A DNA stretch of 64,000 nucleotides from a virus (lineage: Duplodnaviria > Caudoviricetes): the IMG/VR virus record IMGVR_UViG_651053002_000003, positions 2,520 to 66,519 of that record. One strand, written 5' to 3'. Numbering within the stretch: the first letter of the stretch is position 1; the number at the start of each line of letters is the position of its first letter. The position numbers were made by a program, and so were the translations under genes. The notes under the pieces were generated by a model. It made no database searches. It saw only the letters and a program-made list of their open reading frames with translations, and was not told the DNA's origin. Below, in pieces: positions 3,540 to 24,031 of the stretch.

Positions 3540-3830
3540 ATCTTAGCTCGTATTCGAATAACTGTACTATCGGGATTGAAATGGGCCAAAACGATATGAC
3601 AGGTAAGCCTCAGGCGCAACATATGAAAAAACATTAGAGCTAGCTTGCTCCCTCTTGAAAAAATACGGCCTGACACACGAAAACCTTTGGACTCACCATC
3701 AGGTTGTTGGGTGGAAAGATTGTCATAGATACTTCACTAACAATCCATCAGATTGGGTTCGATTTGTGCAAGACGCTTCTAAAATTCTAACTGGAAATCT
3801 GTCACGATTCCTACCCCTACTCCAACCAAC
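3540..3830 (+). pseudogene. N-acetylmuramoyl-L-alanine amidase fragment
   Basis: NNCTIGIEM...KKYGLTHENLWTHHQVVGWKDCHRY = Amidase_2 C-terminal motifs; frameshifted, no start. Confidence 0.6.
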
Positions 3831-4115
3831 ATCAGTTGAAACTCTGATGAAAAGTTTCATTTGCGGATTTACTATGTGAATTCTTGGATCATCTGGAATC
3901 TCAAATAACCGGGAGCCAGTCTTGATTCCATAATCTTTTTTAAGTGCAGGAGACGCTGCTAAGACAACACTTCCCTGTCTATCCGTGTTTCCGACTACAG
4001 CGAGATAACATGTCATTGGATTCAATCCCATTGTTACAGCTGAAACCGAAGCATAAAAGGATTTCATATCTACACAAAGTATATTTTTACGTGGAAACTG
4101 TGAGTAATCAATCAT
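3830..4115 (-). pseudogene. uvrX: Truncated UvrX/YobH Y-family DNA polymerase (N-terminus only)
   Basis: ILCVDMKSFYASV and SVVLAASPALKK motifs; similarity ends after ~95 aa at the junction with the amidase fragment. Confidence 0.8.
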
Positions 4116-4437
4116 TGTAAGCAACTCCTATGATGTCATTCATGGTGATGTATACGATTTGATCGTGATGATCTTTTATGTGTAATTTGTGTTGTTCGTA
4201 ATTGAGATATTGAACTGTACCGATTAAATCCTCAGCAACCCCTTCTTTAAAGAGCTTAAACTTTAGTTCTTTATTCAGTGCCATTGCTTCAGAAACCAAG
4301 ATGTCAATCTCCTCAATTTGTTGTTCATCTAAAGATGGCTCCATTTTCGAAACATCCAACAAGTCATGTTTTAGTTGCGTTAAATATTCTGGAAGCATCA
4401 TGGAAGTCCAATTGATTGTTCCTCGATCTCTAAGCAT
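4108..4437 (-). CDS. YolD-like protein
   Basis: MLRDRGTINWTSMMLPE signature; directly upstream of uvrX. Confidence 0.85.
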   Translation of the reverse strand: MLRDRGTINWTSMMLPEYLTQLKHDLLDVSKMEPSLDEQQIEEIDILVSEAMALNKELKFKLFKEGVAEDLIGTVQYLNYEQHKLHIKDHHDQIVYITMNDIIGVAYND

Positions 4438-4470
4438 TTTGAATCACTCCTTTATCGATCTAACATTAAC

Positions 4471-4514
4471 AGAACAAACGTTCTTTATTCAATATAAATA
4501 AGAACAATAGTTCG
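4471..4514. promoter_or_regulatory. Two LexA/DinR SOS boxes
   Basis: AGAACAAACGTTCT (4471-4484) and AGAACAATAGTTCG (4501-4514) upstream of yolD-uvrX. Confidence 0.75.
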
Positions 4515-4596
4515 ATGTAGTTGTTGGAAATAAAGTATAAAGTTCAATGATATATGTAATATTACATAGGAGAATTTCTTTTCGTACAAAGAGAAT

Positions 4597-4755
4597 ATGA
4601 AGGTGAATGAAGCAAAGCTCCATGAATATTTAAAAGAAAATCTGTCTAGAGAAGCAAAGGAAAAATATAAGATTTATATATTCACAGATGAGGAGGATCA
4701 TTTGTTCAGAGAAGATCATCGAAAATATTTTCAAAAAAACAAATTTGATAAGTGA
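4597..4755 (+). pseudogene. C-terminal fragment of a YozM-like protein
   Basis: EAKLHEYLKENLSREAKEKYKIYIF is similar to the C-terminus of 9278..9613. Confidence 0.6.
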
Positions 4756-4890
4756 AAACGCCCAGCAATTAAACTGGACGTTAATTCGCTCCTATTTCAA
4801 AGCTACCCTATAATGTATTAAATTATAGGGTAATTTTTAAAAATGCTTCGATGGATATATAGATTACTCCTAATGAACATTAATTATTCT

Positions 4891-7800
4891 TTATTTTTTT
4901 TTAGTATTCACGCGTAATTTCTTTCCGCTTTCTTCTTTAACAGAGGATACATAGTTTTTCGACTTTAATGCAGTTGCCAACGCTTTATTAGTTCTATTAT
5001 TTAAGATCTTTATTCGCCTACCTTTTTCAACTATTTCGGAGTAAGGTTTCCCCATTTTAGTTAAATATTCAGTAATTAAATCATTATCGATATACTTTAT
5101 TTGTCCCGTTAGCAATGATAACCTAGTATCCATTGTTGCGGGTGATTCAAGTAAAAAGTCAAGTAGATCATTGGTTATTTTCAGGTTATGCTCATTAATG
5201 AAATAAATTGTATCTTCAAGGATGTCTTTATTTCCATCTGTCATAAAGTTAGATTTTAACTGCTGTACAAAGTATTCTTTGTTAAATTGAGAAAAGTCTT
5301 TGCTATCTATGAGTTGCTTTACATCATTTGCATCAAGCGGAAAATCTCCTTGTTTTTTAATAAACTCATCAGAATTTCTTACAACAAGTCGAGTATGAAG
5401 TGCATCGAAATTTAATTTTAACTCTTTAAAATTTTCGAATGTTAGAGATAACAAATCATTCTCAATCATTAATTTTGCTCTTGTTTCAGTGACATTTCCG
5501 AACGGAAAGTGATCCCAAGAGTGGATGCTAGGAATCAACATCTCGAATGTTTTGTCTGTTATATCTCTACTATTAACGATTTCTTCTGAAATATCTTCTA
5601 AAATCACTTCGTCAAATCTATCATTAAGTGCCTCTATATTACTCTCAGAAAGCACACGCCAATTATCTGGATCATTTAGGAAATCTGTCAGGAAGTTCGG
5701 AATTGTTTTGTTGTACTCGATATAAGATGTAATAACATTTGACCAGTCTGCAATCATTTTATTTTCTTGAATCACTATAGGCCACAATTCTTTAGGTAAT
5801 TCACCGATATTCGAGATGGTAAAACTTTTTTTCATGATAATTGAATGTTTAACTTCCACATCTAGCCCTTCCCAATTTAATAGTTCCAGTACACTTTCCT
5901 CTGGTTCCTCAGTTTCCTCAGTAAGTAGAACTTTTTTAACAAATACTGCAATATTTTCATTTACGTAATCAATGACAGCCTGTTGACCAGAATTTTTAAC
6001 TGCAGCATACGTTACACTGGGAGTATTATTTAAAATAACCGATAAATTATTGGTATTGATTTCGTACAGATTATGTTGAACAACAAAGTCGTATATTGTT
6101 TCTGAGTTTAGTATATGCTCCAAACGTTTAAATTTAACTGAAAGTTTTATAAGTAGTTCTTTCGTTTTCCTTTCTTCAGGTACTAGCGCAAGAAAATCGG
6201 AGTGCTTTGATAATTTACAAGATATAGCTGACTCTTTATCCATTCGGATAATATCATCAGTATCAACATATGCGAGTATATCTGCCAAGTATTCATTTTT
6301 TTTCTGTTCTGTATAATCGGATTTATGTTCAATATAATTCCAAAAATCATCCCACTTATTAGATATCGATTGAATAAATGTAGCTTTTATTGTCGCTCTT
6401 TCTTTAAAACCATCTATGAAGGTAAGAGATGCTCCTCTTCCATTTACCAATTGTTCAATTATATGGTCATAACAACTTTGATAATCAGGATGTTCCATTA
6501 TATAATTCAAAAGATCATAGTTGAGTACCTCTACTTGCTTAAATTCATCACCAGCAAGCTTCTTCATAATTTTAGTTTTATTCTCTAATGGATATTCAAA
6601 AGGTAGTGATTCATGGTTTTTAATACTAAATACAAATTGAATATCGGATAGGCTCAAATTTTCCGGATAAAAATAAGTAATATAATGGTTATACAATTCA
6701 TCAATATATCCATGGCGCAACAAGTAAACAAGTAACTTTTTCTCGTAGATTTCATCCGAAAAAACGGTTTTCGATTCGCTTTTAGCAATTAGTGTTTGTA
6801 AAGATTGTACACTTATTTCTTGTTTTTCTTTTTTTAATTGTGATAGTTCTTTTTTTAGCTCTTGGATTTTATTTTGCTCTATAACTCTAACGGCTTCTTC
6901 TCTTTCAAAATAGTTTGGTTTCCTATTGAAAACGGTTGCAATATCTTTAATTGTCGCTGTACCATTCTTGTCTCTTAAATAACAATGGACAGTATCGGCA
7001 TTTTTCAACTTTTCAAAAAATTGATCTGTATTAGCTGTGTTGCTTCTAAATCGCTCGCCATCTATCTGAATATAATAACTATTAGGTGAATTCAAATTTG
7101 ATATCCCTAATTCGCCCAAGTATATAAAATTTAATTCAGCAATTGATTTTAATGGTTCAACTTCTGCACTCGCTATTGTCATCTCTATTTGTTGTATTTT
7201 TGCATCAATTAAGTTAATTTGTTCCTTAATTATGCGTTGTTTTTTTGAAAGAGTTCATATACCAACCCTTTATTATATTGTAATTTAGAAAAATCCACGG
7301 GATAAATATTCTTGTAGATTATCATTGCCAACAATTTGTTAGCATCAAGATCAATAGCACTTAATTTTTGTTGGTATATTACAAATTCATTAAAAATATT
7401 CTTTAATACTCTCATGTCATCAATGTAAATTGTTACATCTTCTAGAAAATAATCGTTTACCAATTCCGAGTAAGGTGAATATTTTATTTTCTTTTTAAGC
7501 AAATCTCCTGAATTAGATGCATTAATAATAGGTATTACTGGGATTATAAAATCAAAAAATTTCGTACGGTCTTTAGTTAACTTATCTGAATCTACATCTC
7601 CAAAAATATCATCTTTTATCGCATATATAAAAACCACACGTCTATCTATTTGTTCTGAATTATTTATAAGTTCATTCAATTCCCTCAGTTTTTCAAAAAT
7701 ATCGATAATATCAAAGCGATCTAAATCTTCAAAAATTACAACATTATATTTGGAGGCTTCAAAAAAATACAATATTTCATCTAAATATTTATCAAATATT

Positions 7801-8504
7801 GAGGAGCTCTCTTCTCCTGAATTCTTTTCTAACGTTGCGTTAGCAATTGTCACCTTATTTAGTTTTAAGTTAGCGTGAACAAAATGATAAATTCTTTTAC
7901 ATACAAATAAAGGATATATTATAAAAAAAAGTGTTAATAATGTAGTTAGTATTATTTGTTGCCGATCTCCACCACCAAGACTCCTTGAAATTAATGTCTC
8001 AGCATATATGTCTTTAAGTACATCAGGATTAATAAGGTATGTACCAACTATAATGAATGTAAAAAAGGAAATCAATTTTAGGATTATACTCTTCGTTCTT
8101 ATATGCTTAATTCTTTTAAACCTTGAGAAAGGAAGGGTTCGGTCTTGTACCCGGTATATCATTTGTTGCAGGATGCTTTTCTCTAATTTATTTTCCACAT
8201 CATTGTTATCTGTGTGGAATGTAGCTAAGGATATATTTAAGAAACTATATTCCTTACTATGTTGTTCCTGATAGGTATTTAATATGCTACTTTTTCCAGA
8301 TCCATAAGGGCCAGTCAGTGCGATATTTTTCACTTTTTTATTTTTTAACCCCCAACTTAGTGCTTCTGAATATTTCCCATCAGTATCAACATCATTGCTA
8401 GGAGTAAGATCTTCAAAGAGACTCTCTGCCTTAACATTGGATTCATCTAATTTAATCTGAAGTTTCTGTAACCAGTTCATAATTTTTTGTTTGAATTTCC
8501 CCAA
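4891..8504 (-). pseudogene. yobI: YobI-like (KAP-family) P-loop NTPase split by a 1-nt frameshift
   Basis: Walker A GPYGSGKSS, two TM segments, Walker B VVIFEDLDRF, RTKFFDFIIPV; one extra A in the A7 run (7240-7246) joins the 424 aa and 763 aa ORFs into ~1200 aa. Confidence 0.8.
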
Positions 8505-8913
8505 AAAAATATTTCCTTTCTATGCAATTTTTAGATTATTAAATTAGCAAGTTGCAAATGCCAGTCGAGATGAAAATTAATTACATGGTATCTTTAACTG
8601 ACCTTAGTTCTATCTCTACAATTGACTTTCATATTTTAAATTGTAACATGAGAGGCAAAATATGTGTTTAATTAAGTATGTAATTAAATCTCTCTTTGAG
8701 TTTAAACCATCTTAAAAATTAAGTCTCTTAAAATGACCATTAACATAAAAAAAGAACTTGCAAAATGCAGGTTCTTTTTTTATTGTCAATTTATTGTGAA
8801 TTTTTAACGACAAGGGCATTTTATGTATAGTATAATATTTCCTGTACATTAAAGCATGCTCACTCAAGGGAGTCTTGCTCACCTCCATGTCTCAAACAGA
8901 GGAGGTGAGGCCA

Positions 8914-8994
8914 ATGTCAACTTTTCAAGTATTAGTACTCATGCTTGGATTTGGGTCATTTATAATTGCATTGTTGACCTATATAAAAAAATAG
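8914..8994 (+). CDS. bsrE: BsrE-like type I toxin peptide (26 aa)
   Basis: MSTFQVLVLMLGFGSFIIALLTYIKK; GGAGG RBS with complementary CCTCC upstream; TATAAT near 8831. Confidence 0.85.
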   Translation: MSTFQVLVLMLGFGSFIIALLTYIKK

Positions 8995-9170
8995 ACCTCC
9001 CTTGAGCCCTGGAAAAGTTTAAGGGATGGTCTATTCGGTAGATCTGAGCAAGCCCTTTTGTGGGCAGCTTTAGTACAAACAATGACCTGTGGGTGTTGGC
9101 GCACCCCTGGTCTTCTTTTATTTTATGCATTTTTTAAGAAAGAAATACGCAACCAATCAAATGTCTTACA
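8985..9170 (-). ncRNA. SR5-like antitoxin RNA
   Basis: Convergent extended -10 TGtTATAAT (9177-9185, minus); overlaps the toxin 3' region as in bsrE/SR5; ends approximate. Confidence 0.6.
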
Positions 9171-11950: not shown

Positions 11951-12523
11951 TTATCTCGTTCTGTAATAATTTTTAGCTGTATAGTATTTCCAGTCCCAAA
12001 AAGCATCCCCGTTCGACATAATATATCGGTCTAAAAATATTTCAAAGTTTAAATTTAATGGATTATATTCTGAACCACTTTCAAATATAAATAGATAGTT
12101 AGGGTCACCATGATTCACTCTATCCTTGTCGATCATTAAATGACATTCTTCCAACAAATAGCCAATAGGTATTCCATTGATACCTTCAAACAAATCCTCA
12201 TACTTTAGTTCTTCTTCTATATCTTCAAGGCTGAATAGATGAAGTCCTCCACCAATATTCTCACCCTCTGCAAGAATTTCGAAAATTTTCGCACCATTAT
12301 GCTGAGAAATAAACTTCAGATAATCCTCAGGAAGTGTGAATTTATGATTCGACTGAAAGTTTTGGATTTCATTAAGAGAGGCTTTGGTCGGAGAAAAAGT
12401 CACAAGGCCCTCTATAATATATCCTTCAGAACAAAACAATTTAATGGCTCCTTTTTCATCTAAAAGACTTTTCAAACCGTTTATAGTCTTATGGACAAAG
12501 TTAGTCAATAAAATCGCCCCCAT
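11951..12523 (-). CDS. SMI1/KNR4 immunity protein (YokH-like), orphan
   Basis: [15 protein letters not shown] motif; no toxin upstream. Confidence 0.75.
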
Positions 12524-12557
12524 ATTTTCAGAATAAAACACCGAGAATACGAATTTG

Positions 12558-12812
12558 TTAATCAGTAACAATTTTATTCATAATTGAAGCAGCATTAGAA
12601 GTAAACAAAATATAAGTGTTTTTTGCTGTTTTAATTACTATCCTATCCGTAGAGCCATAAGGAAACCCTATCCTTACTGCACTTTTCTCTTGTCCTCCAT
12701 AGTTCGGATCCAGAAATACACCGTTGATTTCTTTGATTGGAATTTCAATTTTAGATAGTTGCCAATTGATAATTAACTTTCCATCAGATTTTTTAACTTT
12801 AATCCCAAGCAA
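12558..12812 (-). CDS. SunI/YnzG-family small protein
   Basis: WQLSKIEIP...[16 protein letters not shown]...YILFT pattern. Confidence 0.6.
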
Positions 12813-13149
12813 AATTGCATTCTCCTTTCAACTATACGGTCAGTTAAATTTTAACATATTAGACTTTTCCTTGATATTAACATGTTGAGCAAACTTCAAT
12901 TTATAATATTTGGTTTTTTTTTTATAATTAGGAAGGTTTGTCCGATATAGAGACAGAACAAACAATTTGGAGGAATTACATTGAAGAAATGGTTATTAGG
13001 TATTGGCCACTCATACTCTAAAAATCACCCTGAATCCACCATATCATCAGGATTAATAATCGCCTTATGATATGCATAAAAGATGGATTATTAAAAGCGA
13101 CACTGTATATATTATTGTTTACGCCGGCATATTCCGCAACCGCTCCTCT

Positions 13150-13254
13150 GAATTTTGGTTAGCGATTTCTTTCGGGCTTAGACAAGGTGAAATTTTAGGT
13201 ATACGTTTCAAGGATATAGACTTCAATACTGGGGTTTTAAGATTCGAAAAATAA
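13150..13254 (+). pseudogene. Tyrosine integrase fragment
   Basis: LAISFGLRQGEILGIRFKDIDF (box I). Confidence 0.7.
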
Positions 13255-13306
13255 GTATGAACCCGCACTTGCCGGAATAGCGCAGGATATTGAAAATACT
13301 CACAAT

Positions 13307-13774
13307 GTGAAGAATACTCCTTTATTGAAAAATATTATTGAAGGTCAAAAAGAGAGTGTGCTCAGCAAGTCTGTGACTTCAAATTTTAGTACAGGAAATA
13401 GCAAGTATACCACAGGTACAATGAAACATATTTATCATGGAGAAATTAATAAACGCGGTAAAGCAGTTGGCTACCACCATGAAAGTATGATGGGCGGAAA
13501 GATTATACCAGGTACAGAAAAGAAGCCTGACAAAAATGGAGTATATATGGCGAAAGTTGAAGTCGAGTCTGTAAAAAAAATAGCGGATTCAAGTTTCTTT
13601 CCAAGAGAATGGAACCGCGCTGACGTATTAAAAGCAATTGACGAAGCTTATCATACCAGAAAACAAGTACGTTCAAATAAGTATAGAGGAATCACTTCAA
13701 CAGGAATTAAAATTGAAATGTATTTAAATAATGACGGAACAATAGCAACAGCATATCCGTTATATAAAAAATAA
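13307..13774 (+). CDS. Orphan EndoU ribonuclease toxin tip
   Basis: HIYHGE..GKAVGYHH, SFFPREW, IATAYP; preceded by an LXG-type junction peptide. Confidence 0.8.
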   Translation: MKNTPLLKNIIEGQKESVLSKSVTSNFSTGNSKYTTGTMKHIYHGEINKRGKAVGYHHESMMGGKIIPGTEKKPDKNGVYMAKVEVESVKKIADSSFFPREWNRADVLKAIDEAYHTRKQVRSNKYRGITSTGIKIEMYLNNDGTIATAYPLYKK

Positions 13775-13795
13775 TCTTAAAGGTGACCAGAGCAC

Positions 13796-14131
13796 ATGAA
13801 ATATTTATACAAGTTTGATAAAGATCCATTTGGTGATATAAAAATAGTTTTACCAGAAGAAATCAGTCTTTTCTCTGACTTCATTGAAAATATTACAACA
13901 ATAGAACAAACTGATGAGTATATAGAATACATTCAGAATGTTTTAAATGGGATACATGAGGATTTTGAAATTGATTTAAATGGGATAAGTGTATTGATAA
14001 AAAAAGATGTTACCGATGTTGAAAACCCTTTTTTGATCGACGACCCTTATAAAAACTCAATAGAAACAGACCAATTTAAAGAGCTATTATTAATATGGAG
14101 AAACAAAATTCCTGAGATATTTAAAGGTTAA
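13796..14131 (+). CDS. Cognate immunity protein for the EndoU toxin
   Basis: Small acidic protein immediately downstream of the toxin. Confidence 0.7.
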   Translation: MKYLYKFDKDPFGDIKIVLPEEISLFSDFIENITTIEQTDEYIEYIQNVLNGIHEDFEIDLNGISVLIKKDVTDVENPFLIDDPYKNSIETDQFKELLLIWRNKIPEIFKG

Positions 14132-14408
14132 GTACATTCATTATTCTACGCGGTGAAATTTGGTTCTTAACCTTTATTGAGCCGGTATTTAAATTTCCCA
14201 GAGACCAAGATATTAAGGCCTTTCTCATAAGAGATGGACTTTATCTATGTTTTCAATAGGATAGACTGTCTTCAGTCCGAGATCCCATCAACATCAGGCT
14301 GGCGACAAAGAACCTTGCATTATACAGCGAATTATTCAAATTCAGCTCAAAAAAATAATTTCGTCCCCAATTCGATGAATGATGACAAAATCAATAAATA
14401 AACAAAGT

Positions 14409-14434
14409 AAAAAACCCTTGCTACGCAAGGGTTT
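14409..14434 (-). terminator. tRNA downstream terminator
   Basis: AAACCCTTG-CTACG-CAAGGGTTT with T-run on the minus strand. Confidence 0.7.
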
Positions 14435-14440
14435 CGGCTA

Positions 14441-14489
14441 TGATTCCGACTGGGCTCGAACCAGCGACCTCTACCCTGTCAAGGTAGCG
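14441..14489 (-). tRNA. 3' half of tRNA-Val(GAC); prophage att core duplicate, not a full gene
   Basis: CTACCTTGACAGGGTAG anticodon arm, GCTGGTTCGAGCCCAGTCGGAATCA T-arm and acceptor; D-arm and 5' acceptor absent. Confidence 0.9.
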
Positions 14490-14600
14490 ATTATCTTCTG
14501 ATGCGAACAGACGTTTTATTTAGAAACCTTATTTTATAAGGTTTGCTGACAAGTCTTTATGATAAAAAATCTTCTGTTTTGGCTAAAAATGAACAAGTTG

Positions 14601-14630
14601 GTCCCCAATTCGTCCCCATCTGTCCCCATA
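14601..14630 (+). repeat. Triple GTCCCCA repeat, probable integrase arm-type sites
   Basis: GTCCCCAATTC-GTCCCCATCT-GTCCCCATA; a further GTCCCCAATTCG at 14363-14374 on the other side of att. Confidence 0.6.
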
Positions 14631-14640
14631 AACTTTCACC

Positions 14641-14670
14641 TTGACAAACAAACATATGTTCGTTTATAAT
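14641..14670 (+). promoter_or_regulatory. SigA promoter with embedded SOS box
   Basis: TTGACA-N18-TATAAT; CAAACATATGTTCG at 14649-14662. Confidence 0.65.
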
Positions 14671-14716
14671 ATTATTAAGCATTAAAAAAGCTCACCTTTT
14701 GGCGGGCTTTGATAAC

Positions 14717-15754
14717 TTATAATTCATCTTCATCTTCAATTTCGAGGTCATCTAGGTCATCTAGGTCATCATATTCTTCAATTCCTGACGCCAATTGTCC
14801 ATTTTCCTGTTCGATTCTTCTTAAAACTTCCTCAACTTTTGTTCTAATTATATTTCCCAATCTCTGTACAAAATCAATTTTTAGTTGAGGTGACCAATGA
14901 TCTCTTTCGCAATTTTCTTCATAACAACTTATCAATAATGGAATGATCGTGTTAAAAATGTATATAGCTATAGCATTATTTTTACGCGTTCCCGTTAGTT
15001 GCATAAAAGCATGGCCCCTATACTCTTGCGGCCATGTTTTAAAGGTTCCTGTTAGCCCTATTTCTAATAGTACTCTTTCAAATCCATACTGGATTGCAGG
15101 TCTAATAGCTTTCAACTCTTCATTATTGAATAGAAAAGTTAGTGTTCCTAAGATAGTAGATATTCTACTTCCTTCCCCTCTCATTGCATTTACCCTATCT
15201 CTAGTTTTCCCCATATAGCTTTCTAGCGCCGTTATATATACTTGTTGACCTTCAGACAGAGGCTCTCTTGGAGTATCTATAAATCGTTTAAATATCCAAT
15301 ACAACAAGTCTTCTGAAATATTAAATTCTAGCGGTGTTACATGTCCCCAACATTCTACAGTAAAAATATCTTTAACAATGGCTTTAGCTCTATTAATACC
15401 TGCAAAAACTATGCCATATAAACAATTATTCATTTCAACAACAAGAATATCAATAATAGTGGAGTTTATTCTAAGATCCTTACTTTTTAAAGTGCCGTCA
15501 GCATTATACCACTCTGCTTCATTTTTTTTTCTTTCGGTATACCCTTGAAAAAATAAATACTGGAGAGTTTGATTTTCAATTTGAACTCTTTCAAACTCCT
15601 CTAAACTAAAACCATTCACAACCCTTACTTCAGAAATTAGATCTTCAGTCCATCCACGAACACTTCTTCTTACTTCAGCACCTCGTTGAATTCTCTGACT
15701 GAATTCCTCTATATTTTGGAATGAATGGAATTCGAATATAGAAAAACTTAGCAA
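14717..15754 (-). CDS. Hypothetical protein with acidic tail; gene 3 of candidate defence operon
   Basis: 345 aa ORF, AGAGG RBS, C-terminus EEYDDLDDLDDLEIEDEDEL. Confidence 0.8.
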   Translation of the reverse strand: MLSFSIFEFHSFQNIEEFSQRIQRGAEVRRSVRGWTEDLISEVRVVNGFSLEEFERVQIENQTLQYLFFQGYTERKKNEAEWYNADGTLKSKDLRINSTIIDILVVEMNNCLYGIVFAGINRAKAIVKDIFTVECWGHVTPLEFNISEDLLYWIFKRFIDTPREPLSEGQQVYITALESYMGKTRDRVNAMRGEGSRISTILGTLTFLFNNEELKAIRPAIQYGFERVLLEIGLTGTFKTWPQEYRGHAFMQLTGTRKNNAIAIYIFNTIIPLLISCYEENCERDHWSPQLKIDFVQRLGNIIRTKVEEVLRRIEQENGQLASGIEEYDDLDDLDDLEIEDEDEL

Positions 15755-15772
15755 GTTAGATACCTCTTTCTC

Positions 15773-16495
15773 CTAGAAAATATCATTTCTAGCTTCAACT
15801 TTATAATTATTAGCTTTTATATCAAAGAACAACCATATAACTATGTAAAGAAAGAATCTTTTGATTTTCTTTTTAGAGATCGGTTCTACAGTTGGGATTA
15901 TGCTCCCGTAATTCAAATCAAAAGATTTAGATAAGATTAAAACTTTAATATATAAAAGACTTTCAACTTTTTTTCGTTGAATAGCTCGATCAATGTCTAC
16001 CTGAAATTTCATTTTTTCTTGAAGCAGTATTTTCCCTTTCAAATCCTGTTCATTGTCAATCTTATAGTCTAACCATTCAGGGATTTCAACATTTAATGAC
16101 AATCCACCAAGTTTATAAATAAATGTACGCAAAAAAAGATTTTTATAATTAAGTTTACAATCTATATGGACAGTGATATGCCTATCGCTACCTTGCCTAA
16201 CATAAAAATAACTATCTGACTTTCTGCTGTTATTTTCCAACCCTATTTCAAACTTACCGGGATATTTTAAAAACTCGATAATTAAACTGATAATAATTAA
16301 GACTATTGCTGAATTAATCGTAAATCCTAAATTAGGTTTATCTTTTATTTCATTTGCCAAAGTATCTAAAAAACGCGAAAGAAAAACAACGATGTCTATC
16401 TTTAAAAAGTAAACTATAAATATTGTAATAGCAGGACTAAAAATTGTCAAAAATTTTAATATTTTCTTTCTTATTTCGACTAGAGATTTTAACAT
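15773..16495 (-). CDS. Membrane protein (2 N-terminal TM, beta-rich domain); gene 2 of candidate defence operon
   Basis: 240 aa, AAGGA RBS, hydrophobic segments. Confidence 0.8.
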   Translation of the reverse strand: MLKSLVEIRKKILKFLTIFSPAITIFIVYFLKIDIVVFLSRFLDTLANEIKDKPNLGFTINSAIVLIIISLIIEFLKYPGKFEIGLENNSRKSDSYFYVRQGSDRHITVHIDCKLNYKNLFLRTFIYKLGGLSLNVEIPEWLDYKIDNEQDLKGKILLQEKMKFQVDIDRAIQRKKVESLLYIKVLILSKSFDLNYGSIIPTVEPISKKKIKRFFLYIVIWLFFDIKANNYKVEARNDIF

Positions 16496-16511
16496 AAACT
16501 TGCTTTCCTTT

Positions 16512-17060
16512 TTATAGAGAGATCTCTTTAATTAAATTTGTAACTTCACTAAGAATTGAAATATCGTCGATTAAAAGAACACCGTTATTATACAGTTGGA
16601 CATTTGTGTAGATCCCTATTTTATCTGTTATTTGTAAAGATACAAACTGAATATCTATGCATTCATCTAATATAATCCAATCAATTTCTTTAAATAAATT
16701 TATTTTGCTCTTCTCTTTTTCTATTCCAGTTGATCGATTAATTTTTTGAATATAGTCATCAACATATTCAATACTTTCAGCAGGAATAGGATCAATAAAT
16801 TTCAATTTGTTTATAAAAAGATTTCCTTTAACGCAACTATCTATTAATCTCATGAATTTACTAGATGAGATAATAACCTGCCTTAGATTTAGATTCTTAA
16901 CTTTTTTAAGAAGATCCACATAATCATTTAACCCATAATCATAAGTGATCCCGATGATGCTTTCAGAAAAATAGATAAGAGAATCTTCTTTAAAAATTTC
17001 TTTTAGATGTTCAAAAGTTTCTTCGTTATTAAATAACTCAAATAATTTCATCTGCAACAT
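16512..17060 (-). CDS. Hypothetical protein; gene 1 of candidate defence operon
   Basis: ~182 aa, GAGGAG RBS. Confidence 0.8.
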   Translation of the reverse strand: MLQMKLFELFNNEETFEHLKEIFKEDSLIYFSESIIGITYDYGLNDYVDLLKKVKNLNLRQVIISSSKFMRLIDSCVKGNLFINKLKFIDPIPAESIEYVDDYIQKINRSTGIEKEKSKINLFKEIDWIILDECIDIQFVSLQITDKIGIYTNVQLYNNGVLLIDDISILSEVTNLIKEISL

Positions 17061-17404
17061 CAGGATCACTCCTCTCAAAATTTTGTAGCTATTAGTATAT
17101 ATTAATCCAATTAGATGAAAATGTCATCAAAATAAATCTCCGAAATATTGGTTTATATATAGGTGGCAAACATAGGACTAAAATGCTTAAATATCTCGTA
17201 TAATCTGCTTAACTTTTGTAAGAAGCACGTCGATCTCTTAGTGCTGTACTTGCTGAAATTCTTTCATTCGAAAATGGATGAGTTACAGTATACCGCAATA
17301 CGTTTTTGCGGCATACCGCAATCACTTTTGATGTATACTGAGTGTATATTCGAGGAAACAGGGGGTTTCCCCCCTTGAAAACCTTGAAACCTGCAGTTGC
17401 GCTT

Positions 17405-17539
17405 CTAGCTTTGCCGGCGGAAGCGCTTTTTCTCCTTTTCTCCTCGCTGCTTCTTTTCATTTTGGAAAATGTCATAAAACTGTTTGCAAATTGTGACAAT
17501 CCCTGCAATGGAAAGAACCCAGTTTCTAAACTCATCCAC
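17405..17539 (-). CDS. Small TM plus basic-tail peptide, YonT-like type I toxin candidate
   Basis: Read manually: TGgTATAAT promoter, AGGAGG RBS, GTG start, MDEFRNWVLSIAGIVTICKQFYDIFQNEKKQRGEKEKKRFRRQS. Confidence 0.65.
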   Translation of the reverse strand: MDEFRNWVLSIAGIVTICKQFYDIFQNEKKQRGEKEKKRFRRQS

Positions 17540-17813
17540 TTAACCACCTCCTAACACAAGAATTATACCATTTTCATCCTAAACACCAATATATTTCATA
17601 TAAAAATTACTCTAAAGAGACGGATGCTCCGCTAGTCATTTTTACCCAACCACATCAAATCTCTGCTTTCTCTTATCTCTATTCAAGGGCAAAACAGGGA
17701 ATAAAGATGCAGACCAAATGATTCATTTTTCCTTTTCAATCGTACAGCGACCATTTTCTTCATTCTTCCATGGTAATATCTTGTTGAAGATTTTCAAAAG
17801 AAAGGATATGGTC

Positions 17814-19634
17814 ATGAAAGTTTTTGAAGCAAACAGCTTGTTGACCGCTGCCAAACAGCGTGCGAGTGAATACAAAGAACTGCGCGGCCAGATGGTCAAT
17901 CTAAAAAAAGCGTTTCAAGGTATGGCTGACCTCGGTGACAACGACTTTTCAGGCCGGGGCGCTGACAACATCAAAGCCTTTTTCCAAGACCACGCCGGCG
18001 TCACAGACAGCTGGCTTGATCTGATCGATATGAAAATCGCATTTCTCACAAGCCTTCCCGGTAAGGTCGAAGATGCCGGACTTTCCAATTCGCATGTGGA
18101 GGAATCATTTCTGGAGCATGAGCTCACCCACGCCCTCAGTAAATCAAAGGCGATTATGGAAGAGCAGAAAAAAGACATGCGCTCCATCCTCGGTGAGATC
18201 GAAGACATCATCTCGCTCGAATTGTTTTCAACCGAAAACACGGATCAGAAGCTCTCTTCAGCAGACAAAAAAAGAAGCGAAACAATACATAAGCTCGGCA
18301 AGCTCGATCACGATCTAATGAATGAATACGCAGAAACCGAAGCGAACGAACAGTTCATCCAAGCTGACTTCCAGCAACTTCAAAATGCCACGGGCAAAGG
18401 AAAAAGCGCCACGCCGCTTCACTACAACGCCAAAGCGTACCGTGAAAGCGACATCCATAAGAAAAAAGGCGATATCGCAAGACATTCGGATGCTTATTTG
18501 ACGATTAAAAAGGAAGAAGCGAAAGAGCGTGAAATCAAGGATCTGAAGAAAAAGCTGGCTGATGGCGTCACCGATCCGGATGAGTATTTGGAAATCGCCA
18601 AAAAGGTTGGCTATGAGAATCTCACCCCTGAACAGCTTGAATTTGTTTCATTTCTGGAACAGCGTAAAGCTTTCATGGATAACGGAAAAGAAGCATTGCA
18701 AATCATAGGTGATGGCGCCAAAGGTCTGCTTGTTGGTGTATACGATCTTGCCAAGGATACCGGTGAAGGAGCACTTCAACTCGGACGGAATATCGGTTGG
18801 ACAATTGACAACTTAAACAAAGATCCTCAAAAAGTTCTGGATACTGTTCTGGAATACGATTATCTAGGTGTCTATCAAAGTATGGTTGACACATTGAAGG
18901 ATGATTGGGATAAAAAGATGATTCACGGGGATGCATATACACGGATGCACTATGTTACTTACTTGGGCGGAAGTCTTCTGTTATTGAAAGGCGGAAAGTC
19001 CTCTGTCTCAACAGGCTCAAAAGATCTTGCTAAAGTTGGGAAGGCGGCTAGCGAAAAGATTAAAAATGGCAATTCATCTGTCAAGCCTTATGCCAATAGA
19101 TATACCCCGGCATTAGAAGGGATTTTACAAGACGCCGGGAATACTATTAATGTTAAAAATACGCCGCTTTTAAAGAGATTAGTTCAATCAAAGGATGATT
19201 TGTTTACTAAAGCCGCACCTTATACTTACAGAGATGAATACGGAAACCTCAAAACAGTTAACTTAAAAATGGGCCATCTTAAAAACCAAAAACATCCTAA
19301 AACTGGAGTTCCATATAATAAAGACGGTTTCCCAATTTTCAAAGCCAAATTTGATACGAAGATTGATTCTAAACTTTATAAGGAAAGCGATTATTTACAA
19401 TTTAAAGATGCAACCTTAAAATTAAAAGAAGAAATTGAAAGAGATCCTTTACTTAGAAATCAATTCAATGACCTTCAAATCGAAATGATAAAAGCTGGTG
19501 AAACACCAGACGGATATACTTGGCATCATCACCAAGATTCAGGGAGAATGCAATTAGTTGACCAAAAGGTGCATCGGCAAACAGGCCATACAGGAGGTCG
19601 GCACCTTTGGGGTGGTGGAAGTAAGAACAGATAG
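17814..19634 (+). CDS. LXG-domain T7SS polymorphic toxin with WHH/HNH nuclease tip (YobL/YokI-like)
   Basis: MKVFEA...[17 protein letters not shown]-terminus; [12 protein letters not shown]...[16 protein letters not shown]...HTGG. Confidence 0.9.
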
Positions 19635-19646
19635 GAGTTGGTCAAT

Positions 19647-20087
19647 ATGACAGAGTGGAGATTTGCCGAAGAACCCATCGGGGAAACAACTGTTAAAAAA
19701 ATCGAAAAGGCTTTAGATATTAAGTTTCCAAACGACTACATTTCAACTATATTAAACAACAATGGAGCACGCCCAAGTAAAAAGATTTTTGACTATGAAA
19801 ATACAAAAGGCGCGGTTTTTAATCGATTACATGGCCTAACTGAGGATAGTTCAAGTTTTATTTTAGAGATCTTAGAAGATTATCAGGATGGAAGAATGCT
19901 TTCAGGGATAGTCCCTTTCGCCTCTGATCCTTTCGGTAATGAAATCTGTTTCGATTATCGTCAGAATAAAGAGAATCCCTCTGTGGTTTTCTGGGATCAT
20001 GAAATTGCTTATGAAGACCCTGATGGAGCTTTGAGTCATATATGTGATTCATTTACGGAATTGGTAGATAAGCTCTACGAAGAATAG
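19647..20087 (+). CDS. SMI1/KNR4 immunity protein
   Basis: FPNDY..NNGARP; PFASDPFGNEICFDY; VVFWDHE; directly downstream of the toxin. Confidence 0.9.
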   Translation: MTEWRFAEEPIGETTVKKIEKALDIKFPNDYISTILNNNGARPSKKIFDYENTKGAVFNRLHGLTEDSSSFILEILEDYQDGRMLSGIVPFASDPFGNEICFDYRQNKENPSVVFWDHEIAYEDPDGALSHICDSFTELVDKLYEE

Positions 20088-20252
20088 AATCAAAAAGTCC
20101 GTATAAACAAAGCCCTTCCCTTTTAAAAAGGGCTTTGTTTATCCTTCCAGTTTGCCTTTCGTTTATCGGTCCGAATATACCGCAGCAGTCAGGAAATTGG
20201 AACAGATTAAAATTAAATTACAAAAAAAGCCCGCTTATAAACAAGTGGGCTT

Positions 20253-20483
20253 TTACTGATCATACGGCCGGTACTTCTTCCGCTCGGCGTCTAATTCTTT
20301 TTTAACTGCTTGTACATGTTCCCGCAAGAACAAAGCCACAGTTCCCACCTTTTTAATCGCCTTAAGCCGACCGCCGCTGACAAGCTGGCTTACGCGCTGT
20401 CGGATAACAGAAAGCAGCTCGGCAACTTCAGTAGCCGTCAAAACTTCATCTTGGATAAACCTAATTTTTTCACTTTCTTTCAT
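20253..20483 (-). CDS. Helix-turn-helix DNA-binding protein
   Basis: VLTATEVAELLSVIRQRVSQLVSGGRL. Confidence 0.75.
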   Translation of the reverse strand: MKESEKIRFIQDEVLTATEVAELLSVIRQRVSQLVSGGRLKAIKKVGTVALFLREHVQAVKKELDAERKKYRPYDQ

Positions 20484-20715
20484 ATCGGCTTTCTCTCCAC
20501 ATCATGAAAATTCCTTTTAACAAAATAAACATTACAGCCAGGTATAAAACAAATGCTGTGATTTTCCCAAGGGCACCAGCTGTTTCGTAATCAATAGTCA
20601 CAATACCAGCAATAATGATAATAAGTGTGATTCATATCCATGTTCAGTTCTCGCTTTTCGCTTTCCTTCGTCGATTTGTCGTAGATGTATTCAATCGTAA
20701 TCACCATGCCAGTTA
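20484..20715 (-). pseudogene. Degenerate small peptide and membrane genes upstream of the HTH gene
   Basis: Fragments GMVITIEYIYDK (cf. GIVTICKQFYDI at 17405..17539) and IIIIAGIVTIDYETAGALGKITAFV. Confidence 0.4.
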
Positions 20716-20952
20716 TAGAAGAATCTAGATCTTACCCTCGTCCACTTCAGTGCCTCTTTTCTTCCCACAGTCAATAGATAGAGAAAATAAACTCCTTCTT
20801 CTTAAAAAAGTTACTTTTCTTAATAATTTAGTTTATTAAGGAAAATTTAAGGTAATCACCAGCAAAATTATGGTATTATAGTTCCTATTACTTTATACCT
20901 TATATTATAAGGGTCAAAAGTAATAGAATTAACAAGAATTGAGGTAATAAGA

Positions 20953-21828
20953 ATGAAAAAGCGCAGTATTATTCTAATTTTAATGCTCGTATCTATTTGC
21001 TCTGTTATAATACCAATGCACACTAGAGCAGAAGAACAAATTGATTATAAAGCAATCTATAATCAAGCAATTAAAGAAGGAGTAATAAATCAATTTGAAT
21101 TAAGTTATGATGATTGGTTAAAAGAAAATGTAGGTTTTAAAAAAATTTACGATGAAGGCATTCAAGAAGATGTTTTAGAACCCACCCTTAGCTACGAACA
21201 ATGGATTAAACTAAATAATTATGGGCAAGAACCTAAAGATGACAATACAGAGCTCGTATCATATACAATAAAGGGATCACCCAACGCCAAAGTAACTCTA
21301 TTGTCAACAAACAGCTCAAATGTTAAGGTAACATCATTGTCCAGTTTTTCAGTAAAACCAGGAGACATTTTCATTACAAATTCTACCTCATCAGCTGGAA
21401 TTATAGGCCACAGTGCTATTGCTAATGGCTCAAATCACATCTTAGATATGCCTGGTTATGGAAACAAAAGTGATAATAATAGACAGCTTACTGTGTCACA
21501 ATGGGTATCAAAATATAACAATGGTTGGATCAAAGTTTATCGATTAAAAAATAGTAGCTTAGCAGCCCAAGTAGGAAAATATGCGGACAGACATTATTGG
21601 TCTACTACAGGGTCTTCAAAAAAAAATATACATATTCCTTATAAATTAACTCCGCATCTTTATAGTGTATCGCCCAGTTATTGTTCAAAATTAATCTATG
21701 ATGCCTATTGGTTTGGTTCTGGTTCAGCAAGTGTTCTAGTGAAACGTTCTGGATATGTTATGCCATTTAATTTAATCGATAATGATTTTACTTCGAAGTA
21801 CAGACCGTCCTTAGTTCATAGATATTAA
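20953..21828 (+). CDS. Secreted permuted papain-like amidase (YaeF/YiiX-like, NlpC/P60 superfamily)
   Basis: Signal peptide; KPGDIFIT...GHSAI...YCSKLIYDAY (His before Cys). Confidence 0.75.
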   Translation: MKKRSIILILMLVSICSVIIPMHTRAEEQIDYKAIYNQAIKEGVINQFELSYDDWLKENVGFKKIYDEGIQEDVLEPTLSYEQWIKLNNYGQEPKDDNTELVSYTIKGSPNAKVTLLSTNSSNVKVTSLSSFSVKPGDIFITNSTSSAGIIGHSAIANGSNHILDMPGYGNKSDNNRQLTVSQWVSKYNNGWIKVYRLKNSSLAAQVGKYADRHYWSTTGSSKKNIHIPYKLTPHLYSVSPSYCSKLIYDAYWFGSGSASVLVKRSGYVMPFNLIDNDFTSKYRPSLVHRY

Positions 21829-21843
21829 ATGGAGGAACATAAA

Positions 21844-22221
21844 ATGTTTAAAAAAATAGCTCTTGTTCTTTTAACATTAGTTGTTATAATTGGTGGCATT
21901 TCTTTAATTGTTCATTTTCACAATAGAAAAGTGGCCGAAGATAAAATTGATCAATACATTTCGGATTATGGTATCCCCAAAAATGAGATTCAATCTGAAG
22001 AGTATCCTTTATTTACATCTGTCAGTGCACCAGCTGGCTTTTTCAAAACTGTTTATGTGAAAAATGAAAATGATAAACAAAATTATTATATTTTTCACTA
22101 TGATCCATCTAGCAAAAAAGTAAAGTTTTCAGCAGTAGTAGAAGGAAATGAAATATCCATGCATGATAAGTTGATCAAAAAATTGAAATACCAACCTTCT
22201 GATAAAGTATTGAATCAATAA
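21844..22221 (+). CDS. Small membrane-anchored protein, possible partner or immunity protein
   Basis: Single N-terminal TM, GGAGG RBS, co-transcribed. Confidence 0.7.
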   Translation: MFKKIALVLLTLVVIIGGISLIVHFHNRKVAEDKIDQYISDYGIPKNEIQSEEYPLFTSVSAPAGFFKTVYVKNENDKQNYYIFHYDPSSKKVKFSAVVEGNEISMHDKLIKKLKYQPSDKVLNQ

Positions 22222-22234
22222 ATTAAGTGAAATA

Positions 22235-22260
22235 AAAAGCCCTCATCTGAGGGCTTTTTT
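22235..22260. terminator. Bidirectional terminator
   Basis: AAAAAGCCCTC-ATCT-GAGGGCTTTTT. Confidence 0.8.
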
Positions 22261-22261
22261 A

Positions 22262-23419
22262 TTAGACTATTAATAATGCAAGCTTCGTTTTTGTTTTAGG
22301 CCCATAAATCCCATCAGCTTTTAATCCATTCATCAATTGGAATCGCCTTACTGCACCCGCCGTCTTCGCGCCATATGCGCCGTCGATTCCGAAATTCTTT
22401 GCATTCTTATCCGGGTAATAGCGGAGCGCCGCCAGCGCCGTTTGAATCTGTTTTACGGCCTCCCCTCGGGTCAATGGGCTTGTGACTTTAAAAGTACCCG
22501 CAGGCAGGCTAAATTTTGATTTTTGAGTGGATTTAGGCTTTGACGATGTTGCTTTCTTCTTGTTGCCGCTTTTCAGCTCGTTATCGCTTTTGATATAGGA
22601 AACATTCACATATCCGTGGAATGTCTTGCCTTTTGAATTGGTGTATTCAACATATCCCCATCCGTTGACAGTTGATCCAAGCTGATATTTTACAATCGTG
22701 CCATTCGGCAGGTTAAGCACCATGGAAGAAGAGGCGCTCCGTTGTGTACGTAAAACAAGGCCATCGCTTGAAACCACCGTGTTTTTGATGAATCTTCCTG
22801 TGTCTGTATGGGTAACGTCCGGATTTGATACAGGCGCCGTTACAACCACACCATCCATTCGCTTTTCAACACGGGTCTTAAAATCGGCAAACCCTTTAGA
22901 GTTGCTTACCCACGGCTCCGGGCAGATTTTATGTGTAATGTCGTAATGTCGAACAATGTCATTGATTGGATCGAGTTTATACATTTTGCACAACTCGGCA
23001 CAAACTTGTTCTGCACGAGCGATGGTATCCGGATGGAAAGTGCCGTTCTTTTCAATGCAAAGCTCCACGCCGATAGATAAGAAATTTGCATTCGGTTTCA
23101 GCGCCGCGACACCCCGGTAAGGCTGCCCGTTAACAAATTGCTGAACGTCATTCGCATGATAGGCCACCTCATTCAACGGAATGATGCAAATAGCCTCTGT
23201 ACGATCGACAAAAATATGTGCAGATGCAAACGTCTGTTTCTTCTCAGACAGATTTCTGTTCTGTGCGGGGAGCGTTTGACCAAAGTATCTATAATGATTG
23301 GCAACAGACGCGCCAGGGTTTGCCGTGTAATGTACGGCCAGTTTCTTCACGCCGTTGTTTTTAATTCCCGGCCGCGTCCATTTATTAATATCAATATATT
23401 GGTTTTTAAATGCTGACAT
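22262..23419 (-). CDS. Endolysin: Amidase_2, SH3 and PG-binding domains
   Basis: AVHYTAN, SIGVELC, RHYDITHKICP; DGIYGPKT repeats. Confidence 0.92.
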   Translation of the reverse strand: MSAFKNQYIDINKWTRPGIKNNGVKKLAVHYTANPGASVANHYRYFGQTLPAQNRNLSEKKQTFASAHIFVDRTEAICIIPLNEVAYHANDVQQFVNGQPYRGVAALKPNANFLSIGVELCIEKNGTFHPDTIARAEQVCAELCKMYKLDPINDIVRHYDITHKICPEPWVSNSKGFADFKTRVEKRMDGVVVTAPVSNPDVTHTDTGRFIKNTVVSSDGLVLRTQRSASSSMVLNLPNGTIVKYQLGSTVNGWGYVEYTNSKGKTFHGYVNVSYIKSDNELKSGNKKKATSSKPKSTQKSKFSLPAGTFKVTSPLTRGEAVKQIQTALAALRYYPDKNAKNFGIDGAYGAKTAGAVRRFQLMNGLKADGIYGPKTKTKLALLIV

Positions 23420-23752: not shown

Positions 23753-24031
23753 TTATTTTTGCAACAGGTTATACATGATCGCGATAGCCCCGCCGATAAA
23801 ACCGGTGCTAACTGCCGTTATTATAGCCCCTGTGATGGTCCGCTTGATCCAAGTCGTATTTTCATCAATTTTGTTCAGCTTTTCGTTTAATGAAATGATT
23901 TGCTGATCATGCCTGTCTGAAGAACGTTCAAGGACACTTACCCGCTGTTCAAGAGTCTTTTGCCCGGCTTTAACCTCTGTAATTTCTTTTTGTAAAGCAT
24001 TCACTTCCGGTACCTCCGTCATTTGTGACAT
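23753..24031 (-). CDS. XhlA-like lysis accessory protein
   Basis: Coiled coil, IDENTTWIKR, C-terminal TM. Confidence 0.85.
   Translation of the reverse strand: MSQMTEVPEVNALQKEITEVKAGQKTLEQRVSVLERSSDRHDQQIISLNEKLNKIDENTTWIKRTITGAIITAVSTGFIGGAIAIMYNLLQK

Follow-up and report, generated by a model that had tools for sequence, protein, structure and literature searches.

The window analysed here is a stretch of 64,000 nucleotides (nt) from the IMG/VR virus record IMGVR_UViG_651053002_000003 (Duplodnaviria, Caudoviricetes; positions 2,520 to 66,519 of the record), and our subject is a trio of genes, A, B and C, located in AT-rich DNA that has the prophage lysis genes on one side and an island of toxin/immunity cassettes on the other. 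The three genes are consecutive, co-oriented open reading frames (ORFs) on the minus strand, separated by intergenic gaps of 16 and 18 nt, with a purine-rich ribosome-binding site (RBS) ahead of all three start codons. Their GC contents (0.257, 0.267 and 0.335 for A, B and C, respectively) compare with 0.449 in the phage body and 0.424 in the adjoining LXG toxin gene. The TTG start of C is retained because the N-termini of its homologs match. A first-pass annotation, made by a model from the letters alone, had described three tightly spaced, co-oriented AT-rich genes each with an RBS, encoding proteins of about 182, 240 and 345 amino acids (aa), with two N-terminal transmembrane (TM) segments in the second and an acidic tail in the third, and all of this is borne out, the GC range being 26–33%. 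Protein A is soluble and acidic (net charge −9). Protein B is basic (net charge +12), and its hydrophobic peaks at residues 22–40 and 58–76 correspond to two N-terminal TM segments; since both its N-terminus (+4) and its C-terminal domain of about 160 aa (+9) are basic, both are predicted to be cytoplasmic, and B can be regarded, as far as the sequence tells, as a putative effector or anchor. Protein C, a putative DNA-binding sensor to judge from its structural model, ends in a 25-residue acidic tail (residues 321–345) with a net charge of −14.

None of the three proteins gave a match beyond noise at an expectation value (E) ≤1 in PADLOC, Pfam, NCBIfam or PHROGs. Likewise, in a 126-member alignment of C no Pfam or PADLOC family was hit by two or more sequences, and sequence-profile searches against the PDB returned nothing for B or for C (RdgC included) and only weak rows for A (best E 0.03). 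Homologs exist nonetheless, all annotated as hypothetical: a search of 5.8 billion proteins yielded 22 clusters for C, 6 for B and 11 for A, with E values for each gene between 1e-35 and 1e-137. Because of these homologs and of the RNA-seq contig coverage described below, A, B and C are more than chance ORFs. A hidden Markov model built from the C alignment retrieved 238 representatives, clustered at 50% identity, at E≤0.001 (149 at 1e-10 and 49 at 1e-30), mostly of 300–350 aa. The acidic tail is found in 20 of 21 close members of the C family versus 18 of the 126 members of the wide alignment and is thus, at the sequence level, a mark of the subfamily to which the C of the window belongs. No match to C appeared in a tblastn search of 50,697 phage records, that is, none of these deposited phage genomes carries it, and megablast of positions 12000–36000 matched only short pieces of SPbeta or rho14, all of them outside the trio. 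The trio family is absent from Pfam and PADLOC-DB 2.0.0, and literature searches over titles and the beginnings of abstracts found no paper describing it, a listing in supplementary files remaining possible.

Transcript evidence agrees with the trio being expressed. In the single-organism RNA-seq run X9, the summed depth of contigs, which reveal neither strand nor expression level and come from a kind of library that can contain DNA, amounted to 39–100 over positions 14706–18034 versus 0–7 over 13000–14601, and the contigs of the metatranscriptome X17 gave a similar picture. Such strongly uneven depth fits transcription of the trio. The contigs over gene C stop at 14706 in X9 and at 14689 in X17, and an imperfect hairpin with a T-run, a likely operon terminator recognised by eye and not listed by the terminator scan, lies just past the C stop codon. 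On the other side, a single X9 contig spans 15866–18034 and crosses the region upstream of A. This region of about 500 nt, at 17079–17600 on the minus strand, is of higher GC content, and palindromes occur in it at several places, one being a terminator-like hairpin of the plus strand (17306–17321); it gave no Rfam match at E≤1 and could harbour a leader, a small gene or operators. Of two raw-read runs, X21 had zero reads on the stretch and X24 covered only the EndoU cassette described below, hence the X24 strain probably lacks the trio and is uninformative on its expression.

The three genes are conserved as a unit. C has homologs in the named genomes of Cytobacillus, Sporosarcina and Ornithinibacillus, in 7 of the 401 Bacilli genomes that were sampled (two already known and five further), on four Enterococcus faecium plasmids, one of which was examined for the trio, and on four metagenome contigs; two contigs that end at C were left out of the trio count. 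A second IMG/VR provirus (L004) also carries the trio, but its block comprising the trio and the LXG genes is 98.8% identical to the window and it was therefore not counted as an independent locus. All 11 loci that could be tested keep the order A-B-C, including those in which C is only about 20–25% identical, so that the expectation that homologs would co-occur as a triplet is upheld. In every one of these loci C is preceded by an ORF of 194–243 aa with N-terminal hydrophobic segments, itself preceded by a soluble ORF of 160–187 aa, and most neighbours within the trio overlap or are spaced by no more than about 20 nt. Among the eight loci outside the profile set, the A profile detects the first gene at E≤1.4e-4 in seven (0.055 in the eighth, L016) and the B profile detects the middle gene at E≤2.9e-4 in five, the other three giving 0.011 (L016), 0.33 (L015) and no hit (L005).

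The model of C (predicted local distance difference test score 82.3, predicted template modelling score 0.80, tail disordered) adopts an RdgC-type fold from residue 1 to about residue 280, followed by two long C-terminal helices. Foldseek matched it to the RdgC structures of Escherichia coli and Pseudomonas aeruginosa (PDB 2OWL and 2OWY) with an E of 1.3e-7 over about 245 residues, which is nearly the whole RdgC chain and encompasses its three-domain fold. The best viral models matching C are phage proteins labelled RdgC or recombination-associated (E 2.5e-9 to 2e-6), and C also matches Iml3, CENP-L and CENP-N structurally; by these models it would sit between RdgC and RexA. Protein A is modelled as a two-domain alpha/beta fold whose sole full-length structural matches are Iml3 and CENP-L. 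Sequence homology between A and C was considered and rejected (hhalign probability 1.2%). As modelled, the folds of A and C appear to belong to the same class, which would suit a two-subunit DNA sensor.

In some of the homologous loci the trio lies on mobile DNA or close to defence genes. In Cytobacillus (L001), the DrmD of the defence island system associated with restriction-modification (DISARM; 1120.7 bits) and PDC-S02 (451 bits) are located upstream of the trio and a tyrosine integrase downstream, whereas in Ornithinibacillus (L003) Drt8 (477.6 bits) lies upstream and PDC-S05 and RhuM downstream; in L019 a Type III restriction enzyme (1098.7 bits) is immediately upstream. The proximity to defence genes anticipated in the first-pass annotation is thus seen in three loci, a minimum, since only 10 neighbour proteins from five loci were scanned against PADLOC. 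At positions 3684–7859 of the Cytobacillus locus the DISARM-type DrmD helicase and an Mrr-like PDC-S02 gene stand together immediately ahead of the trio, and at 5572–8342 of the Ornithinibacillus locus a type 8 defence-associated reverse transcriptase (DRT) is accompanied by an unannotated partner of 395 aa, again just upstream; as these defence genes adjoin the trio, both loci form compact defence islands. Prophages offer a second kind of setting. In L026, whose C is about 25% identical, the trio comes directly after a myovirus-type prophage baseplate J gene (E 3e-101), holin-like ORFs and an endolysin (E 3e-49), so that it follows the lysis cassette in two unrelated prophages, this one and that of the window. 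A capsid-protease fusion gene lies 2 kb upstream of the trio in L015, and on the plasmid L005 an IS256 element and recombinases adjoin it. The neighbours in L018 are of housekeeping appearance, and two further neighbour genes (L017:6665-7633 and L016:10839-11834) gave no phage match.

Whether the trio belongs to the prophage in which it is found is a separate matter (features of the window are collected in Table 1). It had been placed directly inside the phage attachment (att) site, a claim that the sequence does not bear out in that form. A tRNA-like fragment does lie just past C and is followed by a terminator-like hairpin, and a phage tyrosine integrase, cut by the end of the window, is found at the far end of the prophage; such a layout would be expected of an element that integrates at a tRNA gene, the trio then lying just within the distal att. 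However, the fragment scores 25.2 bits with the Rfam tRNA model against a threshold of 29 bits (E 0.036) and is not called by ARAGORN. Neither the window nor either of the provirus records contains a further copy of its 29-nt core with up to three mismatches, and direct repeats of at least 13 nt to the zone 14380–14720 were not detected, the repeat finder giving chance-level pairs only. The fragment is a possible att remnant marking the end of a conserved cassette. Comparison with L004 shows that window positions 14440–20086 (the trio plus the LXG pair) are 98.8% identical to that record, the block ending at 14440, while the lysis genes are only 88.8–93% identical and positions 20087–22279 have no counterpart in it; the cassette therefore has a history separate from that of the phage. 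On this sequence comparison the cassette could be either a resident island beside the phage or cargo open to exchange, and it is doubtful that it belongs to the prophage.

Table 1. Features of the window in the trio and its surroundings
Feature	Position	Strand	Remarks
BsrG type I toxin RNA	8847-9098	plus	full-length match; Rfam RF01412, 128 bits
SUKH gene and SunI-like bacterial PH-domain (bPH) gene	11951-12812	minus
EndoU nuclease toxin domain ORF, orphan	13307-13774	plus	155 aa
tRNA-like fragment	14441-14504	minus	213 nt downstream of C; anticodon arm, T arm and 3' acceptor recognisable, 5' part degenerate
Imperfect hairpin with T-run, likely operon terminator	14682-14707	minus	just past C stop; read by eye
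Gene C	14717-15754	minus	345 aa, TTG start; ORF list
Gene B	15773-16495	minus	240 aa; ORF list
Gene A	16512-17060	minus	182 aa from ATG; ORF list
Putative upstream leader/promoter zone	17061-17600	minus	extended -10-like motif near 17562-17570
GTG ORF with strong RBS	17209-17547	minus	112 aa, low-complexity, doubtful reality
LXG-colicin DNase/WHH toxin gene and SUKH/SMI1-KNR4 immunity gene	17718-20087	plus
Amidase (lysis)	22262-23419
XhlA (lysis)	23753-24031

The toxin/immunity island comprises the LXG pair, the EndoU ORF, the SUKH and SunI-like genes, a YobI NTPase and a BsrG-like RNA. In the LXG toxin the LXG domain begins at residue 34, so that the true start of the toxin is probably near 17814, and the second provirus record contains an additional copy of the LXG N-terminal part with 92% identity. 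Between this pair and the lysis genes, positions 20087–22279 hold an ORF of 291 aa with a weak Peptidase_C92 hit (E 0.0035) and a DUF3139-like ORF of 130 aa, probably a variable junction or cargo slot of the prophage. On the other side of the trio, the small ORF downstream of the EndoU ORF is probably its immunity gene (cassette 13307–14131, plus strand), and the raw reads of X24 over this cassette fall on one strand only (first mate on the plus strand, depth 13–39). At 13072–13254 (plus strand), just beyond the tRNA-like fragment, an ORF of 60 aa resembles, by eye, an inner piece of a tyrosine recombinase, a hint that integration may have happened here more than once. Farther away, the DNA of the SUKH gene within 11951–12812 is 84% identical to SPbeta yokH. 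At positions 4891–8504 (minus strand) a YobI-like P-loop NTPase (424 aa, E 1e-126) precedes a co-directional ORF of 763 aa without a Pfam match, and a stop codon or a frameshift may have divided what was a single long gene; positions 3723–4437 contain an IMS/UmuC-type fragment and a YolD-like gene.

The reading that we favour, tentatively and at somewhat less than even confidence, is that the trio constitutes a Rex-type phage-exclusion module, similar to abortive infection, that couples DNA sensing to a membrane effector and is carried on mobile DNA of Bacillota. The first-pass annotation had proposed a sensor plus a membrane effector in mobile defence cargo, and this broad idea fits the unity of the trio, its patchy distribution, its defence neighbours and the folds of A and C, whereas the links then drawn to Azaca and Cap15 find no support in PADLOC at E≤1. 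In such a module C, as a putative protein of the RdgC/RexA class, would clamp DNA as a homodimer or paired with A, in the way that Iml3 pairs with Chl4, and the targets of this sensor, located in the cytoplasm, would be phage DNA or intermediates of replication/recombination. Once bound to DNA, the sensor might act on B, the 2-TM protein whose basic C-terminal domain is predicted to face the cytoplasm, and B would then damage or permeabilise the membrane, stopping the infection. In the subfamily represented in the window, the acidic tail of C may hold the sensor or B off until it is displaced by DNA. The proposal builds on the gene anatomy, the conservation of the trio, the folds predicted for A and C, the neighbourhoods of the loci and the RNA coverage; DNA binding, the A–C and C–B contacts, the trigger, the membrane effect and defence itself are what it would add to them. 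In a bolder form, to which we give a somewhat lower probability, the trio would be the first described example of a tripartite immune system of Bacillota mobile elements, composed of a kinetochore-like heterodimeric A–C DNA clamp that senses invading DNA, a new 2-TM effector that it switches on and a DNA-mimicking tail of C that serves as a safety catch. If that were true, the folds of RdgC, RexA and CENP-L/N would represent one ancient DNA-sensing scaffold reused in immunity.

An unlikely alternative, yet the best of those considered, is a role in DNA transactions or maintenance rather than defence, in which an RdgC-like ring of C with A around double-stranded DNA restrains RecA or recombination, or affects the stability and induction of the prophage or plasmid, while B tethers it to the membrane. 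Such a role would accord with the fold of C, but RdgC is not accompanied by an invariably conserved membrane protein, a rare and patchy family is unlike a core maintenance function, and the cassette occupies accessory cargo sites near DISARM, DRT and restriction genes instead of replication or recombination modules. We give slightly less credence to a superinfection exclusion without suicide, or block to DNA entry, in which B anchors the A–C clamp at the membrane, incoming linear phage or plasmid DNA is captured and the cell survives. The anatomy it calls for is identical to that of the Rex-type module, the basic C-terminal domain of B is predicted to be on the cytoplasmic side, the trio occupies the post-lysis 'moron' position in two different prophages, and a RexAB-type system of Pseudomonas putida is reported to have shown no membrane depolarisation (PMC12894663); the present data, however, fit the Rex-type reading equally and do not separate the two. 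Highly improbable, finally, is the reading as an accessory of the adjoining LXG locus, serving in immunity, secretion or regulation, or as a prophage module that times lysis with a holin/antiholin-like B. The trio does lie 640 nt from the divergent LXG-colicin DNase/WHH gene with its SUKH immunity gene, is inherited with this pair as one block in the second record and comes after lysis genes in two prophages. Against this reading, of which the polymorphic-toxin version is largely rejected, speak the lack of any LXG or other polymorphic-toxin Pfam match among the scanned neighbours in six other loci (L001-L003, L015-L019 in part), the GC mismatch between the trio and the LXG gene (0.26–0.33 versus 0.42), trios on plasmids and in defence islands that have no phage lysis genes, and RNA contigs over the trio in a library of unstated growth state made without selection for prophage induction.

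The working of Rex has puzzled researchers since the 1950s. Very few systems of its type have been described, and those found in the literature searched come from phages of Proteobacteria and Actinobacteria. The trio may be a new relative of Rex, and a conserved, compact three-gene version in Bacillus and its kin could provide a tractable Gram-positive model of Rex. As its sensor is much nearer to the structurally understood RdgC ring and an extra subunit is present, it could help to establish which DNA feature is read and how the membrane is signalled, and it would add a family of 238 representatives to defence annotation. Should the trio turn out to be an RdgC-like recombination or maintenance module instead, it would represent an RdgC-fold family in Bacillota, where we know of none.

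Regarding the known systems to which the trio had been or can be compared, a relation to Azaca (ZacABC), a three-gene Bacillus system as described in the first-pass annotation, found no support, since no PADLOC family was matched by A, B or C at E≤1. The likeness to Cap15, a small membrane effector of the cyclic oligonucleotide-based antiphage signalling system (CBASS), fared no better, with no PADLOC or Pfam match at the same threshold and with neither a cyclase/CD-NTase gene nor any fourth gene in the operon; PADLOC-DB 2.0.0 presumably contains models of both systems. With RdgC, C has its fold in common but no Pfam RdgC match at E≤1. In addition, C always shares its operon with the genes of a membrane protein and of another small subunit, bears extra C-terminal helices and an acidic tail, and is mobile and patchy, whereas RdgC is a stand-alone chromosomal gene. 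Structural matches to Iml3/CENP-L, which with Chl4/CENP-N forms a DNA-contacting heterodimer of the eukaryotic inner kinetochore, are given by A and C, C matching CENP-N as well, and these model-based matches suggest a two-subunit DNA-contacting assembly of like folds.

The closest parallels are lambda RexA/RexB, gp30/31 of mycobacteriophage Sbash and PP_5643/5644 of P. putida, which likewise are operons of prophages or mobile genetic elements encoding a small membrane protein together with a cytoplasmic protein of the RexA/RdgC/Iml3 class, to which C would belong by its model, and which, like the trio, appear to be expressed from the resident element. Sequence homology to the lambda proteins was not seen, as the 126-member C alignment and lambda RexA gave an hhalign probability of 0.2%, the same value as B and RexB. 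In the P. putida report, however, the class is recognised by a DNA binder of the RexA fold with an unrelated membrane partner, accepted membrane partners are also without sequence similarity to RexB, and the sensor can trigger partner-dependent membrane damage (PMC12894663). RexB is a small 4-TM protein, whereas B combines two hydrophobic segments with a soluble domain of about 160 aa. Rex consists of two genes beside the prophage immunity repressor, whereas the trio, at 14.7–17.1 kb, is about 42 kb away from the helix-turn-helix repressor-like genes at 58.7–60.4 kb, whose identity as repressors was judged by eye. Compared with Rex, the trio thus has a third subunit, another membrane partner and a sensor whose predicted structure lies between those of RdgC and RexA.
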